64,000 nucleotides of DNA from sequence record OL631481.1; one strand, written 5' to 3'. Both the position numbers and the translations under genes were made by a program. The DNA is from Escherichia phage ECML-183-2. Below are positions 23,408 through 30,027 of this stretch, in pieces; position 1 is the stretch's first letter; every line of letters begins with the position of its first letter. The notes beneath the pieces are model-generated. The model saw only the letters and a list, made by a program, of their open reading frames with translations, was not told the DNA's origin and ran no database searches.

Positions 23408-23665
23408 TTAACCACCTTTTTTCAACAATTGGCATACTTTAAAAAGACTTGCTGAATCCTTGCAAGGGTAGAAAGATGTACGATAATCACGTACGCCAAC
23501 CTTGCGGATCTCGATGTTCTCGCATGTTGTTTGATCAAAGATATTTATTTCATCACGCCCCCTTATATAAACATAGTGGGGATGTATTAACGCATATTTT
23601 GCTAATCTGTAAAAAGCGTTATCTTTGAACGCGATCACGTGACCTTTTAATTTGATGTAAAACAT
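23408..23665 (-). CDS. hypothetical protein (85 aa)
   Basis: GGTGG RBS; downstream of cassette. Confidence 0.5.
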   Translation of the reverse strand: MFYIKLKGHVIAFKDNAFYRLAKYALIHPHYVYIRGRDEINIFDQTTCENIEIRKVGVRDYRTSFYPCKDSASLFKVCQLLKKGG

Positions 23666-23683
23666 TCTACCACCTTACAAATA

Positions 23684-23738
23684 GCGGGAACTATTCCCGC
23701 TTTATGTAACATATTAACAAATTATTCGTTAATGTCAA
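23684..23738 (-). promoter_or_regulatory. promoter plus leader-hairpin cassette
   Basis: TTGACA-N16-TAATAT, hairpin GCGGGAATAGTTCCCGC. Confidence 0.55.
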
Positions 23739-23741
23739 ACC

Positions 23742-24014
23742 TTAAAGCAAAAACGCTACATCTTGCGCTTTTAGTGTAGTATCAACCATTTTCGGGCTTT
23801 TATAATCAACAAAGCGCGCGGTTTTTTCAATAGCGAAACCGAGATAATCTTGTTTATTGAATTTACATTCTTTCTTAAATGTTTCCCGCGCCACGGTGAT
23901 CGCTGCGTCCAGGGATAAACGCCCGTCAATGTTGATATTTGCGAAAGATCCGCCACCGCTCATAGGTTTACCAGTGGTGCCAGCTACGATCATTGTTGCG
24001 CTATATGATGCCAT
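23742..24014 (-). CDS. hypothetical protein (90 aa)
   Basis: track ORF trimmed to ATG (MASYSA) downstream of hairpin. Confidence 0.5.
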   Translation of the reverse strand: MASYSATMIVAGTTGKPMSGGGSFANINIDGRLSLDAAITVARETFKKECKFNKQDYLGFAIEKTARFVDYKSPKMVDTTLKAQDVAFLL

Positions 24015-24038
24015 GATTATAATCTCTCTTCTGTTGTG

Positions 24039-24100
24039 AGCGGCTGGACCATTCCGCCGCCCTATGTGATACATCTTATCAGGTTGTTGTTTGTTGTCAA
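24039..24100 (-). promoter_or_regulatory. promoter plus leader-hairpin cassette
   Basis: TTGACA-N16-TAAGAT, gtatcACATAGGG, hairpin GGCGGCGGAATGGTCCAGCCGC. Confidence 0.6.
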
Positions 24101-24106
24101 TACTTT

Positions 24107-24304
24107 TTATTCTATTCCTGCAATTTGATTAACGCGCTTGCATTTTGTAGCGTGCTGGTCTTCTGTAATGACTCCCATTTCTAACAGGGAATCAATGAAA
24201 GATAAAACCGTTTCATGATCATCCTGGGGATGACTGAACTCAGTAAAACCGTTTACCACGACGCTGATTTGTCCTGCTTTCGCTACTATGTGCAATGTTG
24301 CCAT
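24107..24304 (-). CDS. hypothetical protein (65 aa)
   Basis: track ORF trimmed to ATG (MATLHIV) downstream of hairpin. Confidence 0.5.
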   Translation of the reverse strand: MATLHIVAKAGQISVVVNGFTEFSHPQDDHETVLSFIDSLLEMGVITEDQHATKCKRVNQIAGIE

Positions 24305-24325
24305 GATTTTAACTCCAAATAATGA

Positions 24326-24382
24326 GCGGCACCATTGCCGCCCTACGTGGTAAATATTATGCCGCCACCTGGCGAACGTCAA
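24326..24382 (-). promoter_or_regulatory. promoter plus leader-hairpin cassette (first of array)
   Basis: TTGACG-N17-TAATAT, ttaccACGTAGGG, hairpin GCGGCAATGGTGCCGC. Confidence 0.55.
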
Positions 24383-24491
24383 TCACTTTTTCAATCTTTT
24401 TTATTTTCTTTTTGCTTGCTATATATAAAAGAAAGGGCTATCATCTTTCTACCGCGCCAACCAGGGCGCACATCAAAGAAAGGGCGATACC

Positions 24492-24758
24492 ATGACAAAT
24501 ACTACATTACACCTTATGCACTCATTGGGCTGGCAAGGCGGCACGGTGCACCAGGTAGCAAGCGCAACGGGCTTAAAGGTTGAAACAGTTCTCAACCTGG
24601 GCGATCATAAGGTGGAAGAAATAGATCATTTTGATACGTTCGCAAATGGTTATCTATGGGCTTGCAGTGGCGGCGGGGAAAGCAAGATACCACCAGGGGC
24701 GCGGGGCGATATGTATTTTTGGTTAGGTGTCCTATCCTGGCAAGAAAACAAAAAATAA
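24492..24758 (+). CDS. hypothetical protein (88 aa), possible small DNA-binding regulator
   Basis: only plus-strand ORF at the head of the array; AAGGG RBS; candidate extended -10 (TGcTATATA) upstream. Confidence 0.4.
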   Translation: MTNTTLHLMHSLGWQGGTVHQVASATGLKVETVLNLGDHKVEEIDHFDTFANGYLWACSGGGESKIPPGARGDMYFWLGVLSWQENKK

Positions 24759-24760
24759 TC

Positions 24761-24789
24761 TTGACAAGCCCAGGGATCGGGCTTATACT
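24761..24789 (+). promoter_or_regulatory. sigma70-like promoter with no CDS downstream
   Basis: TTGACA-N17-TATACT on the plus strand. Confidence 0.5.
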
Positions 24790-24795
24790 GTTTTA

Positions 24796-24900
24796 CATAC
24801 AGAAGAGGAAGCGCCACCCCACGGCGTAAAGGCGGGGCTAACATACCAGGGGGGGCACTGGTTGGAAGGTTGATCGCCGGTAGGCTGGGCGCTATATATT
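24796..24900 (+). ncRNA. candidate small structured RNA (GC-rich island)
   Basis: begins after promoter 24761-24789; GC-rich with paired GCGCC / GGCGC ends, followed by TATATATTT; no ORF with RBS. Confidence 0.3.
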
Positions 24901-25023
24901 TGTAAAGAAATGTAAAGATAAAATAATCGCTTGCTTTCCTGGCTGGATCTGTTATTCTTATTACATGGCGAGGGGACACGGGAGCGCGAGACAAACACCG
25001 CCCCTGCGCGTCATTCTCTAAAT

Positions 25024-25042
25024 GAGAATGATTATCATTTAC
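25024..25042. promoter_or_regulatory. Fur-box-like palindromic site
   Basis: GAGAATGATTATCATTTAC, 15 of 19 matches to Fur consensus; flanked by inverted repeat TCATTCTC / GAGAATGA. Confidence 0.3.
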
Positions 25043-25081
25043 CTTATCAAATAAGAATCAATCTCATTTATAAACCTAAAT

Positions 25082-25100
25082 GCGAATCATTATCATTTGC
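25082..25100. promoter_or_regulatory. Fur-box-like palindromic site
   Basis: GCGAATCATTATCATTTGC. Confidence 0.25.
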
Positions 25101-25145
25101 ATTTCCATATGAGAACTCTTCTCATTCCCATCTGCATAAATTTTT

Positions 25146-25328
25146 GTAAACTTTAAATTTTGCTTTTGTACTTTCATTTTTGTAAAAGCAAAAAAACTTT
25201 AAATACTGTGGGCGCGCAAAATTTTTAAAATTTTCCTTGACTTTTGAGTTTTGTTTTGTATCTAACATTTTAAGATAATTTTCCTAAACTTTAAATTTTG
25301 GTTTTCAACTTTCACTTTTGTAAATTCT
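25146..25328. repeat. AT-rich direct repeats (two copies of about 43 bp plus shorter reiterations)
   Basis: aactttaaattttgcttttgtactttcatttttgtaaaa repeated as aactttaaattttggttttcaactttcacttttgtaaat; tttgagata reiterated at 25350-25390. Confidence 0.5.
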
Positions 25329-25566
25329 TAAAAAGTTTAAATAATTTGAGGGATTTTTGAGATAATAGGTAGTGGGAATTTGAGATAACCTTTAATCTTA
25401 TTAGTAGACCTTCAGGAACCCACTCAGATCGAATCCTAGTGATGCAAACTGAAAAAGACAAGGGTTTGTATAGGACAAAATAACAGGCTCTCTACGGTGC
25501 TGTAGGAGCCTTATTTCTGTGCTACAAAGTGACACCTTTGTTCTAAAAATGAAAAAAGTTAAAATA

Positions 25567-26109
25567 TCACAAATATCGTCTTTGCGGTATTTTGTCTGGG
25601 AAAAGTATTTCGATCAGTTTGTTATGATATTTACCTAAAAGATTTTGCCCTTTCCAGTTGACCGGATTTAGCACCCCTGGTTCATACATTCCCATTCCAA
25701 TACCGTAAACCTTATCGTAAGGACTTGCTTCAACAAACGTTTTGTATTGGTAAAGGTGTAAGTCTGCATACAAATCTGGATTCTGTACATATTTCAAGCA
25801 TAAACCTCGCATAACAATACGCTCACGGTTCTCTTCCCATACGTTGTTATCAAAATCCGACACTGCCCTACCCATACGTTTGTAATAAGCTTGAATCTTC
25901 TCATCTTTCCGTATCAAACTATGAGTCAGAATAGCCTGTGCAGTGTTGTGATCATTAAAAAGCAAAGCTTTACGCCACATTATGTATTGTTCGACACAAT
26001 TAAATGTCTGATTGTAACCTGGTTCGGTTTCTGTAAAGGGTGCAATATACCAATTACTAAAAACATCTTTATGTGAAAAGAAGAATACATAATCATCAGT
26101 TATTCGCAT
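25567..26109 (-). CDS. NADAR-domain protein (YbiA-like, DUF1768)
   Basis: YVFFFSHKDVFSNWYIAPF and EQYIMWRKALLF motifs typical of NADAR N-glycosidase domain. Confidence 0.6.
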   Translation of the reverse strand: MRITDDYVFFFSHKDVFSNWYIAPFTETEPGYNQTFNCVEQYIMWRKALLFNDHNTAQAILTHSLIRKDEKIQAYYKRMGRAVSDFDNNVWEENRERIVMRGLCLKYVQNPDLYADLHLYQYKTFVEASPYDKVYGIGMGMYEPGVLNPVNWKGQNLLGKYHNKLIEILFPDKIPQRRYL

Positions 26110-26284
26110 TTTTCATACTCTCCAAAATTTCACGTTGCCCTTGCTGATAGGCTTTCATCAGAACTACTTTAAGGTTTGTCTCCAAGAGGTCTTCATTGTA
26201 ATTATACCGCTCCACAACATATGTCAATTCATCATAAAGATGAAGAACGGGGTAGAATACAGGGTTATCTGCTAAACGTGCCAT
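26096..26284 (-). CDS. hypothetical protein (62 aa)
   Basis: start moved to ATG (MARLAD) after AAAGGAGA RBS. Confidence 0.4.
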   Translation of the reverse strand: MARLADNPVFYPVLHLYDELTYVVERYNYNEDLLETNLKVVLMKAYQQGQREILESMKNANN

Positions 26285-26297
26285 AGTTTCTCCTTTG

Positions 26298-26663
26298 TTA
26301 ATCCATCCACCAGTAGCCATAAACTGCGTCTGCGTCGATGAGTTTGTGTTTGTTGTTCCGCATGTAGTCTAAGATAAGTAGACGTTTATTGTATCTGGAG
26401 AGATTATGACCCTCTTTTCCGCCATAGTCAAAATATTTTGCAAGATCTTTACACTCAAACAAAATCAGTTCGGGAGTTTCTTCACACTGGTCTGTCTGGT
26501 ACACTTGACGAATGATCATGTATACATCGTCGTCTTCCGCTAAATGCTCTACTGGTCCACATCCAGCAGGAACAAATTCATAGTCCCATCTGATCAGATG
26601 TTTCTCTACTGCTTCAAAGAAGTCCATTCTTTCGTTGCGCATAATTTGAACGTCAACTAACAT
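26298..26663 (-). CDS. hypothetical protein (121 aa)
   Basis: AGGAGG RBS. Confidence 0.5.
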   Translation of the reverse strand: MLVDVQIMRNERMDFFEAVEKHLIRWDYEFVPAGCGPVEHLAEDDDVYMIIRQVYQTDQCEETPELILFECKDLAKYFDYGGKEGHNLSRYNKRLLILDYMRNNKHKLIDADAVYGYWWMD

Positions 26664-27841
26664 GTTTCCTCCTGTAATGTTCCACCATAAAGTTTATAAA
26701 TGTTTTGTATTGATGCCATGCAAGATAACTCCGCTGTCTCTGTGTAGCCATCTGGCATAGCATATTTGCTCACTGCTTCCGTGTGAAGGACACGCTTACA
26801 ACGCTTTTCTGCATCTTTGCATTGCTTCACAGTAGGGAAGTGCCACACTTGGCCCTGTTTCATAGTAAACACATTACGACTATTTTGTTCTTTGATACGG
26901 CGATTACTATTATTAGCAATACCAAACTTCAGTGCACAGATAATATCTTGCTCATCGTAAATATAATTAATGTAGGCTTGTTGTTGATTTTTGTTAGCAC
27001 ACTGCGGACAACCTTGTCCTATGTTTAAAAGGTTGTTTGCAGTTCCTTTTTGTTCCCCATGACTCTTACATACGTATTTAAACTTACCTATAGAAGATGG
27101 TTTGGTAATCCATCCTATCCAAACATACCCTTTCTTTTCTATTTTCTTTCTTACTTTATACGTAATCTGTTCCGCTGTATACCTATAAGATGCAGAGCAA
27201 CGGCAGGGTAAGTGTCCATATTTAAGATTGCTACGCGTCATATAAAACTTACCATCACATAGTCCAGCTTTAACATATTCATCATGAGAACAAACAGGAC
27301 ACTGAACCATCCATACTGGATCACACCCTTTACGTTCCCCCGTGTTGGTGAAAATAGTGCCTTCCTTAAACTTCCCTGTAGAAAAGAAATCTGCAATATG
27401 TTGATCGTCGGGTATTGTTTGTGACCTCCTTGTGTTCTCATACCTACATATAAGACAACCACTGCCATGTTTAAAACTATCAAAACTACATGTATTCCAT
27501 TCATGACCATACCTACAACGTAGCATCATTTTCGTACGCGCACCTTTAAACGGTTCTACGATACCTATGATGGTAATCCCCTTAGCTTCCGCTATTGGTT
27601 TACATTCAGTAAGGTATGTTTTTAAATCTTTAATTTGACCTGCACACATAGGACAACCACTACCACGTTTAAAACTGTTAATACTTGTAGTATCCCATTT
27701 ATAACCACAATGACACAACAAATCAAGTTTTGTATTAACCCCTTTCCATTCTCCCGTCCATCCTAAGATTTGGATTTGCTTACTCTCTGCTATTGGTTGA
27801 CACTCTTCTTTATATTGTTCCCATGATTTTGGTGCTGCCAT
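26657..27841 (-). CDS. zinc-finger repeat protein with C-terminal GIY-YIG-like (T5orf172-type) domain
   Basis: three repeats of C.{2,3}G..W.T.S..SFK.GSGCP.C treble-clef-like units; C-terminal YINYIY...KFGIAN...R...E pattern; AGAGGAG RBS. Confidence 0.5.
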   Translation of the reverse strand: MAAPKSWEQYKEECQPIAESKQIQILGWTGEWKGVNTKLDLLCHCGYKWDTTSINSFKRGSGCPMCAGQIKDLKTYLTECKPIAEAKGITIIGIVEPFKGARTKMMLRCRYGHEWNTCSFDSFKHGSGCLICRYENTRRSQTIPDDQHIADFFSTGKFKEGTIFTNTGERKGCDPVWMVQCPVCSHDEYVKAGLCDGKFYMTRSNLKYGHLPCRCSASYRYTAEQITYKVRKKIEKKGYVWIGWITKPSSIGKFKYVCKSHGEQKGTANNLLNIGQGCPQCANKNQQQAYINYIYDEQDIICALKFGIANNSNRRIKEQNSRNVFTMKQGQVWHFPTVKQCKDAEKRCKRVLHTEAVSKYAMPDGYTETAELSCMASIQNIYKLYGGTLQEETC

Positions 27842-27916
27842 CTGTTGCTCCTCTTATTAATCTGATATCCATACAAGAGAAAACCCGCCGAAGCGGGTTT
27901 AATAAATCTCAACTTA

Positions 27917-29056
27917 TTAGAACACGCTACCTAATGTGGTGGAACGTTGTGTTACAGGCTCCAGCACCACTCGCAGAGTGTTTCCTGGTGTAGTGCTCAT
28001 CACCAGGATCTTACCACCTTCAATCAGATCACAAGTTAGACCATCAGCAGTTGCACATAGATCAATATGTGGATCACCATCTTCATCCAGGATAACATAA
28101 CTGTTGGTTTCCATTGCTTCAACTTCATCATCTTTCAAGCTTTGCAGATAGATGTTCAGGGAACAAGCACCCGACAAAAACTTAGTAGGGGTGAAGTCGT
28201 GCCAGTTATTGATCCAATTCACCTTCAGAGTTTTGCCATTAGCTACGATAGAAGCCACATTCCATTTAGCATCATTGCCTAAAGAAATACCCATCATTTC
28301 AAGGCATTCTTTAAAAGTCATTTTTGGATAGAAATTCAATTCTTCTACAATGCCTTGAATAACATCGAAAGACAACTCTGTGCTAACATCCCATAAACGT
28401 TGGAAGTTATCTACGTGTTTTTTATTTACCAAGTTCTTATCCAAGTAATCTAACATAGTTTCACTAGACAGTTTATCGTAATTGAAACTGTAATAGATAC
28501 GACTAGGACGGTTTACAAAATATTCCGAGATATAGCCGCTATTTTTAGTGAGGATGTAAAGTTTATTTCCACTTCCTGTTCCATCCAACAAGGTCAACAG
28601 TGCTTCCTGATCTTCTTTCTTAGCGTACACTTTATCAAATTCGTCAAATAAAACAACAGCACGATCTGTAATTTTACTCATAAATTCTAAGAATCCAGCA
28701 TCTGTGTAAGGCTGTGTCACCAAAATGGTTGGAATACCTAAACCTTCTGTGGACATTAGGGACATGCTAATTAGTTTAGCCAACATCGTCTTACCACTGC
28801 CTTTTGTCCCTGTCAGTAACACCCCAGTATTTTTACCTTCTTTACTACGACGAGCAAATGTTTTAATAACATGTGCGGCGCGATCTTTAGTTTCCCCATA
28901 AAGAGTGTTCGGAAGAGAGAAACTTTCACCACGCACTAAAGAGTAGTTACCGTGCGGATCGCAGTTGACAACCCAAACTCCAGCAGGAAGTTTATTAGCT
29001 TCAACGCCATATTCCTTATTTACAACAGCTACATCTCCAAAAATAGTGTATTTCAT
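27917..29056 (-). CDS. AAA+ family ATPase
   Basis: Walker A GTKGSGKT and Walker B VVLFDEFD. Confidence 0.65.
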   Translation of the reverse strand: MKYTIFGDVAVVNKEYGVEANKLPAGVWVVNCDPHGNYSLVRGESFSLPNTLYGETKDRAAHVIKTFARRSKEGKNTGVLLTGTKGSGKTMLAKLISMSLMSTEGLGIPTILVTQPYTDAGFLEFMSKITDRAVVLFDEFDKVYAKKEDQEALLTLLDGTGSGNKLYILTKNSGYISEYFVNRPSRIYYSFNYDKLSSETMLDYLDKNLVNKKHVDNFQRLWDVSTELSFDVIQGIVEELNFYPKMTFKECLEMMGISLGNDAKWNVASIVANGKTLKVNWINNWHDFTPTKFLSGACSLNIYLQSLKDDEVEAMETNSYVILDEDGDPHIDLCATADGLTCDLIEGGKILVMSTTPGNTLRVVLEPVTQRSTTLGSVF

Positions 29057-29412
29057 TAGAACGTTTCTCCTTTTAAAATAATTACTGTAAACTTTGCAGT
29101 TTTTTCACTCTTAATATTCTTGACTAATAAGTATTCTCCTCCAAGGGCATCTTTGTATTGTTTAATAGCTACTATTTCATTTTTGCAAGTAGCTATAATC
29201 GAATAAAAAGGACGTTCCGTGTTATCTTCTTTTCCTGTATATGCCTCAACATCTTTGCACTCTTCTAGAACACCATTCCCAGGTGTATAGTAAAACTTGT
29301 TGCCTGTGATCACAACATCTTTACCAATATCCGTTTTAACTGCTACAAATTTTTGAGCGTAAGTGGTGAAGCTTACGGTAGCCAGCAATGTGGCTAAGAT
29401 TAATTTTTTCAT
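29056..29412 (-). CDS. secreted protein with signal peptide
   Basis: start at ATG after AGGAGGG RBS; MKKLILATLLATVSFTTYAQ signal-like N-terminus. Confidence 0.5.
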   Translation of the reverse strand: MKKLILATLLATVSFTTYAQKFVAVKTDIGKDVVITGNKFYYTPGNGVLEECKDVEAYTGKEDNTERPFYSIIATCKNEIVAIKQYKDALGGEYLLVKNIKSEKTAKFTVIILKGETF

Positions 29413-29423
29413 AAACTTCCCTC

Positions 29424-29588
29424 CTATTCCCACAACATACAAATCGCAGCGACAAACATATTAGCAATAGCCGCACCAAGAACTATAAACATCGCCAGTT
29501 CAGAACAATATTCACCAACCAGAGGGGATACTATTGCACAAAGTAGTCCCAATGTCAAACACAAATTGATGATGAAGTTTAAAATCAT
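29424..29588 (-). CDS. small membrane protein (54 aa)
   Basis: hand-translated MILNFIINLCLTLGLLCAIV...; AAGGAGAG RBS. Confidence 0.35.
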   Translation of the reverse strand: MILNFIINLCLTLGLLCAIVSPLVGEYCSELAMFIVLGAAIANMFVAAICMLWE

Positions 29589-29597
29589 ATTCTCTCC

Positions 29598-29762
29598 TTA
29601 CAACCAACCCTTTGCCTGGTAGCCTTTAGAAAATCCATCTTCCCATTCTTCGAATTCCTTTTTGTGTGTCATTGGACAATATGGATTTACTTTATTAAAC
29701 ATACCAAACTTGAACCCTGCGGTATACCCCTTCTTAAAAGCTATTGATTCTAAAGAGATCAT
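29598..29762 (-). CDS. hypothetical protein (54 aa)
   Basis: start moved to ATG (MISLES) after AGAGGAGA RBS. Confidence 0.4.
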   Translation of the reverse strand: MISLESIAFKKGYTAGFKFGMFNKVNPYCPMTHKKEFEEWEDGFSKGYQAKGWL

Positions 29763-29775
29763 ATTCTTTCTCCTC

Positions 29776-30027
29776 TTAGAACTCGACAATTATTTTGTCT
29801 AAGTGTTCTGCTTCAACTTGGGATAATGTTAACACCTGCACCAAACCTCTGTCAATGCCTAATTTGATCACTTGCAAATAATCGCCAAAAAGATCAGAGA
29901 TTTCAATCTGGTGTTCAGTAACCACCACGACCTCGTTACCCTTGGTATACTCTCTCCAGATTCGTCCACACTTGTAAATGAAATCTTTCTGGTCTTCACT
30001 GATCATCTTAGGCTTAACGCTTAACAT
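29776..30027 (-). CDS. hypothetical protein (83 aa)
   Basis: TAATG stop-start overlap with upstream gene. Confidence 0.45.
   Translation of the reverse strand: MLSVKPKMISEDQKDFIYKCGRIWREYTKGNEVVVVTEHQIEISDLFGDYLQVIKLGIDRGLVQVLTLSQVEAEHLDKIIVEF

Follow-up and report, generated by a model that had tools for sequence, protein, structure and literature searches.

The region at positions 26,298 to 29,056 of Escherichia phage ECML-183-2 (OL631481.1) raises the question of what connects two adjacent open reading frames (ORFs), one encoding a zinc-finger protein with a GIY-YIG-like C-terminus (ORF1) and the other an AAA+ ATPase (ORF2). In the window, by which we mean the whole 64,000-nucleotide stretch that was analysed, ORF1 (26657-27841) and ORF2 (27917-29056) lie where an earlier note on the sequence had placed them, and the ORF listing puts both on the minus strand. 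That note had proposed either a homing-type endonuclease with a remodelling factor or a host-takeover pair. On computed evidence from domains, fold, conserved residues, insertion boundaries, empty sites, the turnover of alleles and contrasts in divergence, ORF1 is very likely a free-standing homing endonuclease gene (HEG) of the CapR-zinc-finger/T5orf172 class as in Vibrio phage ICP1, situated between the ATPase gene and a gene for a 121-residue protein, with ORF2 as an unrelated conserved neighbour. This class has already been described and the finding is largely ordinary. Outside the model systems ICP1 and T4, the locus offers a clean natural case of a HEG being inserted, lost and replaced by other alleles.

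A megablast search with window positions 26000-29500 matched 126 phage records, the top relatives being nepoznato (98.7% identity), TSP7_1 (97.3%) and phAPEC8 (96.5%), all from the genus Phapecoctavirus of the subfamily Stephanstirmvirinae. The window belongs to a phAPEC8/nepoznato-like coliphage of this genus, which is much used for E. coli biocontrol. In RefSeq, the nepoznato counterpart of ORF1 is gp115, named 'endonuclease' and 100% identical to the ORF1 protein, and that of ORF2 is gp114, named 'ATPase'. No published description of locus-level mobility evidence for ORF1 was found in Stephanstirmvirinae.

Empty sites and allele turnover at the ORF1 locus

ORF1 is absent from phiWec188, where the gene for the 121-residue protein comes immediately after the ATPase gene. 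BLASTN alignments (against L009 and L007) break at window positions 27914 and 26672/26673, and the 1241 bp between them (26673-27913) are represented by 31 bp in phiWec188. Further empty sites, with an unbroken match over the junction, are present in phiWec190 and the Klebsiella phages phi1_175008, KP13-26 and KP2025. The closest comparison is provided by the near-isogenic phages phiWec188 (HEG-) and phiWec179 (HEG+), whose flanks are 98.0% and 95.6% identical and which differ by a 1007-bp cassette in phiWec179 in place of 9 bp. This cassette is bounded precisely by the terminator hairpin of the ATPase gene (GATGCCCCGCAAGGGGCATTT) on one side and by the ribosome-binding site (RBS) of the 121-residue-protein gene (GGAGGAAAA) on the other, and the two phages are well suited as partners for a direct homing test.

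The same boundaries also hold very different alleles. Phage ASO2A carries between the same two breakpoints a 486-residue endonuclease only 38.8% identical to ORF1, next to an ATPase whose protein is 100% identical to that of the window. Across the phage collection, the ATPase reaches 99% identity or more to the window protein in 62 records, and ORF1 does so in only 3. The element thus combines a presence/absence polymorphism with precise boundaries and a history decoupled from that of its flanking genes.

The earlier note had advised looking for a conserved gene interrupted in relatives. None is interrupted: the insertion is intergenic, and an intron or intein was rejected on this ground. We also rejected the idea that the type of ATPase decides whether a HEG is present, as phiWec179 has a phiWec188-type ATPase plus a HEG. 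Phage vB_EcoM_EP57 was likewise rejected as an isogenic empty site, because its deletion fuses the ATPase in frame to the 121-residue protein. This 130-kb record lacks the HEG and the final codons of the ATPase gene (L010 2048-3553) and, compared with the window, carries several more deletions; its junction was treated as a secondary loss or an assembly problem.

The divergence of the two genes from their relatives points in the same direction. The synonymous divergence (dS) of ORF1 is 0.013, 0.009 and 0.035 against nepoznato, TSP7_1 and phAPEC8, compared to 0.099, 0.108 and 0.133 for the neighbouring ATPase gene, that is, about 4-12 times lower, and the ratio of nonsynonymous to synonymous divergence (dN/dS) of ORF1 is 0-0.18. 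Counted in 100-bp bins, window positions 26700-27999 contain 3 differences from nepoznato and 2 from TSP7_1 in 1300 bp, whereas positions 28000-29899 contain 42 and 45 differences in 1900 bp (about 2.2-2.4%). A Poisson estimate for the low-divergence tract gives P ~1e-9 (nepoznato). The tract takes in the final ~80 bp of the ATPase gene, as would a co-conversion tract. A second allele-replacement patch lies near the HEG at window positions 26096-26320 (minus strand), where a small gene has 26-31 differences per 100 bp from phAPEC8 and TSP7_1, with 0-3 per 100 bp on either side. The region is unsuitable for phylogeny.

In the phiWec188/phiWec179 comparison, the final ~275 bp of the left flank contain 14 substitutions, against ~1 per 100 bp farther out. 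Six of these changes, all synonymous, cluster at the very end of the ATPase gene, in its final six codons plus the stop codon (L009 4622-4639). This cluster is only suggestive of target-site immunity or of the edge of a conversion tract. Judged by its empty sites, by the replacement of alleles between fixed boundaries and by the low-divergence tract, ORF1 behaves as a HEG, and the homing-type endonuclease of the earlier note is well supported by these observations together with the nuclease domain and catalytic residues described below.

The gene order on the minus strand is ATPase stop codon, terminator-like hairpin, RBS (AAGAGGAG, ~6 nt ahead of the ORF1 start codon), ORF1 and the 121-residue-protein gene, and the spacer between ORF1 and the ATPase gene is 75 nt. 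A terminator is annotated independently at the equivalent site of ASO2A. Promoter-like matches in the region were rarer than in shuffled sequence, and ORF1 may be expressed by read-through of the terminator. No tRNA or tmRNA gene was detected in the 64-kb window, Rfam had no match within 23500-29600, and a tBLASTn search of the whole window revealed no paralogue of ORF1.

Domain composition and module turnover of ORF1

The N-terminal part of ORF1 matches the Pfam CapR homology domain in four stretches (E 1.6e-35, 121.6 bits, cutoff 24.2) and DUF4379, a 'probable treble-clef zinc finger' (27.9 bits, cutoff 24.5), and the protein as a whole matches PHROG 681 'endonuclease' (E 6e-81). CapR is matched by all 62 ORF1 homologues examined. 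Dissection with hidden Markov models (HMMs) gave the module order A-A-B-A-T, where the nuclease domain (T) is preceded by three A modules and by a single B module, the latter of the CapR core type. Thus, the zinc fingers of the earlier note were borne out, whereas HMM dissection and Pfam replaced its three tandem units with four modules of two kinds in an array that is not strictly tandem. As read from the sequence, each module shows two Cys/His ligand pairs of the form CxxC...CxC or a variant of it, and the four module B cysteines (C181, C184, C213 and C215) are invariant among the 62 homologues.

The Pfam CapR domain is named for the capsid repressor of the PLE satellite, a DNA-binding protein with a CxxC...CxC zinc finger for which zinc binding and sequence-specific DNA binding have been demonstrated, and which is kin to the N-termini of the putative T5orf172 HEGs of ICP1 (PMC8096241). 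By analogy, the ORF1 modules are putative zinc-binding and DNA-reading units. A PDB sequence search with ORF1 returned only two chance matches to Fab heavy chains (E 0.24-0.58), and NCBIfam and PADLOC gave no match to the protein.

The C-terminal domain resembles T5orf172, as had been noted from the sequence, and the resemblance is real, yet it is sub-threshold in Pfam for ORF1 alone. At the level of the family, T5orf172 is matched by 34 of the 62 homologues at E<=0.01 (best 3.8e-5) and MUG113 by 12. The AlphaFold model of ORF1, built from the 62-sequence alignment, has a mean predicted local distance difference test score (pLDDT) of 93, and its C-terminal domain has the beta-beta-alpha-beta-alpha core of the GIY-YIG alpha/beta fold. 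The superfamily pattern is complete, with a Tyr in beta1, K/Y-x-G in beta2, an Arg in alpha1 and the catalytic Glu, and Y290, K305, G307, R315, E345 and E368 are invariant in the 62 homologues, down to 24% identity. K305 occupies the place of the second Tyr in the canonical 'YIG'. A search of BFVD with the model found 217 viral models at E<=0.001, named CapR-homology, zinc-ribbon, GIY-YIG or 'homing endonuclease', so ORF1 belongs to a large phage family.

Residues were mapped onto Odn (Gp88) of ICP1, the only T5orf172 protein for which an active-site mutant has been tested: Odn E180A does not cleave in vitro and does not function in vivo (PMC8263062). Its sequence was taken from ICP1 (L013:9828-10508, minus strand), and hhalign against this single sequence was used only for residue mapping. 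It places the Tyr, K-V-G, Arg, E180 and the Glu of 'VETF' (E202) of Odn on Y290, K305-F-G307, R315, E345 and E368 of ORF1. A missing nuclease-domain match or missing catalytic residues would have spoken against the earlier note; both a T5orf172-type domain and equivalents of the catalytic residues are present, with E345 aligned to Odn E180. From this likeness of sequence, the C-terminal domain would be expected to cut DNA.

Module architectures were scored by HMM dissection over 72 homologues. The commonest are A-B-A-T (24 homologues) and the A-A-B-A-T order of the window ORF1 (23), followed by A-A-A-B-A-T and B-A-B-A-T (6 each) and B-A-T (4). One metagenomic protein of 669 residues (P0022) has the order A-B-A-T-A-B-A-T, a tandem fusion in which two complete endonuclease units lie head to tail in a single ORF. 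Relative to the window, the alleles of tuntematon (332 residues) and SKA64 (326 residues) have an in-frame gap of ~180 bp at 27608-27788, which corresponds to one module length across A1/A2, with A1 absent or fused with A2 in these 326-332-residue alleles. Two C-terminal allele types, '…QEETC' and '…YSKEM/V', are paired with varied N-terminal arrays, a pattern of domain shuffling like that reported for ICP1, where gp174 shows repeat-mediated gain and loss of modules (PMC10448857).

We propose that ORF1 would recognize DNA through its four modules (A-A-B-A) of ~65 residues and cut it through the C-terminal T5orf172 domain, with Y290, R315, E345 and E368 as the proposed catalytic residues. In a mixed infection, the enzyme would cut the cassette-free allele near the junction, and the candidate cut site lies in the last ~20-100 bp of the ATPase gene or in the short spacer. 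Repair by recombination off a cassette-bearing genome would then copy the cassette and a short flanking stretch, so that the ATPase gene would provide flanking homology and possibly the target. Recombination among the repeated modules would alter their number and probably also the target specificity. The array has some possible interest for engineering DNA-binding specificity. A more far-reaching idea is that the zinc modules (~65 residues each, with 0-3 extra A modules before a constant B-A-nuclease core) form a modular DNA-recognition code with one sub-site per module. The enzymes would then be natural re-programmable 'zinc-finger nucleases', retargeted among alleles of the otherwise invariant ATPase gene and used by the phage for allelic exclusion of competitors beyond selfish homing; we consider this unlikely.

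The neighbouring ATPase and alternative explanations

ORF2 matches Pfam AAA (29.9 bits, cutoff 21.2) and PHROG 2376 'ATPase' (E 3.9e-111). Both AAA+ motifs named in the earlier note, GTKGSGKT and VVLFDEFD, are present, and the HMM searches it had called for (GIY-YIG, T5orf172, AAA) yielded this AAA match besides the family-level matches of ORF1. The sensor-1 Asn (N172) is invariant. The AlphaFold model (pLDDT 84) has an N-terminal beta region (residues 1-55), an AAA core and lid (~56-255), a beta-rich C-terminal domain (~260-370), which accounts for the long C-terminal extension seen earlier, and a disordered aromatic tail. A PDB search with the family profile returned p97/Cdc48 D2, NVL/Rix7, AFG2, NSF and PEX1, and Foldseek with the model returned Bcs1, proteasomal Rpt, FtsH, AFG2, Rix7, Cdc48 and NSF (E 1e-8 to 1e-6 over ~250 columns). 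Neither search showed likeness to DNA-remodelling enzymes or DNA motors.

By sequence and model, ORF2 is thus best classified as a classic-clade AAA+ enzyme of the protein-remodelling or unfolding type. It shares the Walker A and B motifs, the sensor-1 Asn and an RPSR like that of the second region of homology with p97/Cdc48 D2, NVL/Rix7, AFG2, FtsH, Rpt and Bcs1. In contrast to these, it is a single AAA module with family-specific N- and C-terminal beta domains, and it has neither a protease or other effector domain nor a clear pore loop. The aromatic residue at position 117 is semi-conserved (Y117-T-D), and the canonical aromatic-hydrophobic-Gly loop was not seen. Against six relatives the gene has 21-30 synonymous and 0 nonsynonymous differences, and it is under extreme purifying selection. 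The family comprises 735 proteins at E<=0.001 and extends over Stephanstirmvirinae, GAP32-like jumbo phages, Aeromonas, Microbacterium and Agrobacterium phages, Herelleviridae and crAss-like phages. ORF2 is probably an essential or near-essential early-region protein-remodelling ATPase. Conserved in very different virulent phages, it is the more interesting of the two genes, outside any nuclease system.

The C-terminal tail of the ATPase (residues 370-379; window 27917-27950, minus strand) is disordered in the model (pLDDT <50) and ends in hydrophobic and aromatic residues (…SVF, …LLY, …RLFK, …MFDGK). A Phe, Trp or Tyr occurs within the last six residues in 114 of 117 full-length homologues, against ~50% expected by chance, and a speculative parallel is with the tails by which proteasomal and HslU-type ATPases dock. 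ATPase homologues lie ~0.5-2.5 kb from tRNA genes in GAP32 (L004), EF24C (L005) and Aeromonas phage 4_4572 (L006). The protein is mislabelled 'DnaA regulatory inactivator Hda' in SKA64 (L003 4719-5858) and 'FtsH-like protease' in the EmilieFrey record. NCBIfam and PADLOC gave only P-loop-level matches far below threshold, and the SKA64 label is explained by such a sub-threshold match to Hda (19 bits, cutoff 194.8).

If the two genes formed a functional two-gene system, the ATPase would serve ORF1 as a remodelling or loading factor. They are indeed same-strand neighbours, 75 nt apart, throughout Phapecoctavirus and Justusliebigvirus, but the ATPase occurs with no endonuclease neighbour in five phage groups (GAP32, EF24C, Aeromonas 4_4572, phiWec188 and Klebsiella phi1_175008); in GAP32 the endonuclease homologue is ~60 kb away from the ATPase homologue. 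Conversely, the distant ORF1 homologue P0066 lies between lysozyme/baseplate genes and a ribonucleotide reductase gene, and P0047 lies beside a NUMOD4 protein and near terminase/portal genes, with no AAA gene near either. The two genes have a terminator between them, and next to an invariant ATPase protein the ORF1 allele spans 38%-100% identity. The ATPase resembles protein unfoldases and not DNA motors, and neither protein matches a PADLOC or NCBIfam system. Because ORF1 homologues occur in unrelated contexts and the ATPase family is widespread with no endonuclease neighbour, neither the nuclease with a remodelling factor nor the host-takeover pair of the earlier note is supported. We regard a working pair as very improbable; the sequence contexts suggest that the genes became adjacent through insertion.

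Several observations weigh against an actively homing endonuclease, and two further explanations draw on them. Taken alone, ORF1 stays below the Pfam cutoffs for T5orf172 (15.2 bits against 20, E 0.03) and MUG113 (16.3 against 22.3, E 0.015), both matches lying at residues ~293-359, and hhalign matches it only weakly to the single Odn sequence (E 0.019). A scan for promoters detected no sigma-70-like site in the 75-nt spacer, and ASO2A lacks some of the six synonymous changes at the ATPase 3' end. Moreover, an allele of some kind occupies this site in nearly all sequenced records of Phapecoctavirus and Justusliebigvirus, so the element may be largely fixed and not actively homing. The low domain scores and the replacement of the second Tyr of 'YIG' by K305 would fit an inactive relic, that is, a DNA-binding zinc-finger protein with a non-cutting GIY-YIG-like domain, and the describing authors report that the canonical motif is absent from all ICP1 relatives (PMC8096241). 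However, K-x-G is the norm for T5orf172, and Odn carries it and is an active nuclease (PMC8263062). With the proposed catalytic residues invariant over 62 diverged homologues, a dN/dS of at most 0.18 and a recent allele spread that implies activity, a relic is hardly to be expected. The near-universal presence of an allele would also fit a domesticated ORF1, kept for the benefit of the phage as a weapon against co-infecting phages or satellites (like Odn) or as a DNA-binding regulator (like PLE CapR or I-TevI). I-TevI also represses its own gene. Purifying selection on the catalytic and zinc-binding residues favours this explanation, as does the 3' end of ORF1, which overlaps the RBS and start codon of the next gene and could couple their expression; the same domains have been domesticated elsewhere (PMC8096241; PMC8263062). 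But ORF1 is dispensable, because empty sites occur in otherwise near-identical genomes. Allele turnover within fixed boundaries and an allele younger than its flank are signs of mobility, unlike a fixed host function, and homologues are scattered over unrelated contexts. Domestication is accordingly given a low probability, well below that of the HEG, and the two readings are not mutually exclusive.

Known systems, feature coordinates and neighbouring observations

The HEGs of ICP1 are the closest known relatives of ORF1 in organization. About 87% of 229 T5orf172 HEGs have zinc fingers of the CapR, DUF723 or DUF4379 type, often repeated; their modules are duplicated and deleted through inter-repeat recombination, and the genes adjoin conserved genes, where a distant homologue or a HEG of another class can take the place of the HEG at a given site (Barth et al. 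2023, PMC10448857). In tBLASTn, ORF1 is 30.9% identical to ICP1 ORF165 over residues 77-321 (E ~1e-24). ORF165 (gp165) and gp174 have the same order of N-terminal zinc modules and C-terminal T5orf172 domain (PMC10448857, PMC8096241), and like ORF1 they vary in repeat number, stand free beside conserved genes and show allele turnover at fixed sites. Unlike the ICP1 HEGs, ORF1 is found in Stephanstirmvirinae coliphages, has a longer array of four modules of two kinds, and lies at the junction of the AAA+ ATPase and 121-residue-protein genes.

The Seg proteins and I-TevI of T4 are encoded by free-standing intergenic genes beside conserved genes, with flanking co-conversion and presence/absence polymorphism. 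ORF1 shares the free-standing intergenic placement beside conserved genes, the polymorphism and, judged by the low-divergence tract, the flanking co-conversion. The DNA-binding modules of Seg proteins and I-TevI are of the NUMOD/helix-turn-helix type, with a linker zinc finger in I-TevI, whose nuclease domain is N-terminal. In contrast, ORF1 carries its nuclease domain at the C-terminus, and the domain belongs to the T5orf172 variant, with K replacing the tyrosine of YIG.

Odn and ORF1 both have a T5orf172 catalytic domain with aligned motif residues, although their match is weak. Odn differs in that its DNA-binding domain is RepA_N and in that it has been domesticated as a weapon against satellites and is no homing element (Barth et al. 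2021, PMC8263062). PLE CapR shares CxxC...CxC with module B, which is the best Pfam CapR match in ORF1; unlike ORF1, it is a 15.5-kDa single-domain repressor and has no nuclease domain. The coordinates of all features are collected in Table 1.

Table 1. Features of the ORF1 locus in the window, with the evidence for each (strand: -, minus).
Feature	Position	Strand	Evidence
ORF1, putative free-standing homing endonuclease, 394 aa, A-A-B-A-T	26657..27841	-	Pfam CapR x4, DUF4379, PHROG 681, AlphaFold
Module A1, aa 5-69, proposed ligands C43/C45, C63, C66	27635..27829	-	HMM dissection
Module A2, aa 71-135, proposed ligands C109, H113, C129, C132	27437..27631	-	HMM dissection
Module B, CapR core, aa 156-218, C181-x2-C184...C213-x-C215	27188..27376	-	Best Pfam CapR stretch aa 156-216
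Module A3, aa 221-284, proposed ligands C258, H261, C278, C281	26990..27181	-	HMM dissection
T5orf172-type (GIY-YIG superfamily) nuclease domain, aa 285-394; Y290, K305-F-G307, R315, E345, E368	26660..26989	-	
Mobile cassette, ~1241 bp	26673..27913	-	BLASTN breakpoints, junction sequences
Intrinsic-terminator-like hairpin, 3' of ATPase gene, 5' of ORF1	27881..27900	-	Terminator scan
Right junction: final ORF1 codons (…QEETC*) double as RBS (GGAGGAAAC) and ATG of the 121-aa gene	26657..26672	-	Junction sequence
Downstream 121-aa gene, PHROG 24465	26298..26663	-	ORF listing; adjoins ATPase gene directly in empty-site genomes
ORF2, classic-clade AAA+ ATPase, 379 aa	27917..29056	-	Pfam AAA, PHROG 2376, PDB profile search, AlphaFold, Foldseek
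Walker A GTKGSGKT, aa 83-90	28787..28810	-	G83, K85, G86, G88, K89, T90 invariant
Walker B VVLFDEFD, aa 134-141	28634..28657	-	D138, E139, F140 invariant
Second-region-of-homology arginines R183-P-S-R186	28499..28510	-	Invariant; aligned with p97 RPGR

Beyond the 121-residue-protein gene, window positions 25567-26109 (minus strand) encode a NADAR-domain protein (Pfam E 1.6e-34), whose relatives are labelled 'GTP cyclohydrolase II' or 'YbiA-like N-glycosidase'. This protein may remove ADP-ribosyl groups and act in counter-defence. The analysis of the locus corrects the database labels 'hypothetical protein', 'Hda', 'FtsH-like protease' and 'GTP cyclohydrolase II'.

The segment at 25018-25350 is poor in ORFs and contains iteron-like repeats, with 3-4 copies of a ~22-nt palindromic unit (TAAATGAGAATGATTATCATTT) at 29-nt spacing and three copies of an AT-rich unit (AATTTT..TAAACTTTAAATTTTG); a repeat_region is annotated there in tuntematon. 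These repeats may serve as an operator, as an array of promoters or as an origin.

Among the related records, MG065650, OP562383 ('Acinetobacter phage') and OR584014 ('Pseudomonas phage') have ~92-94% nucleotide identity to this group of E. coli phages, and MG065645 and MG065639 encode Justusliebigvirus-type proteins; MG065650, MG065645 and MG065639 are labelled 'Campylobacter phage'. Judged by these sequences, the host labels of all five records look doubtful.

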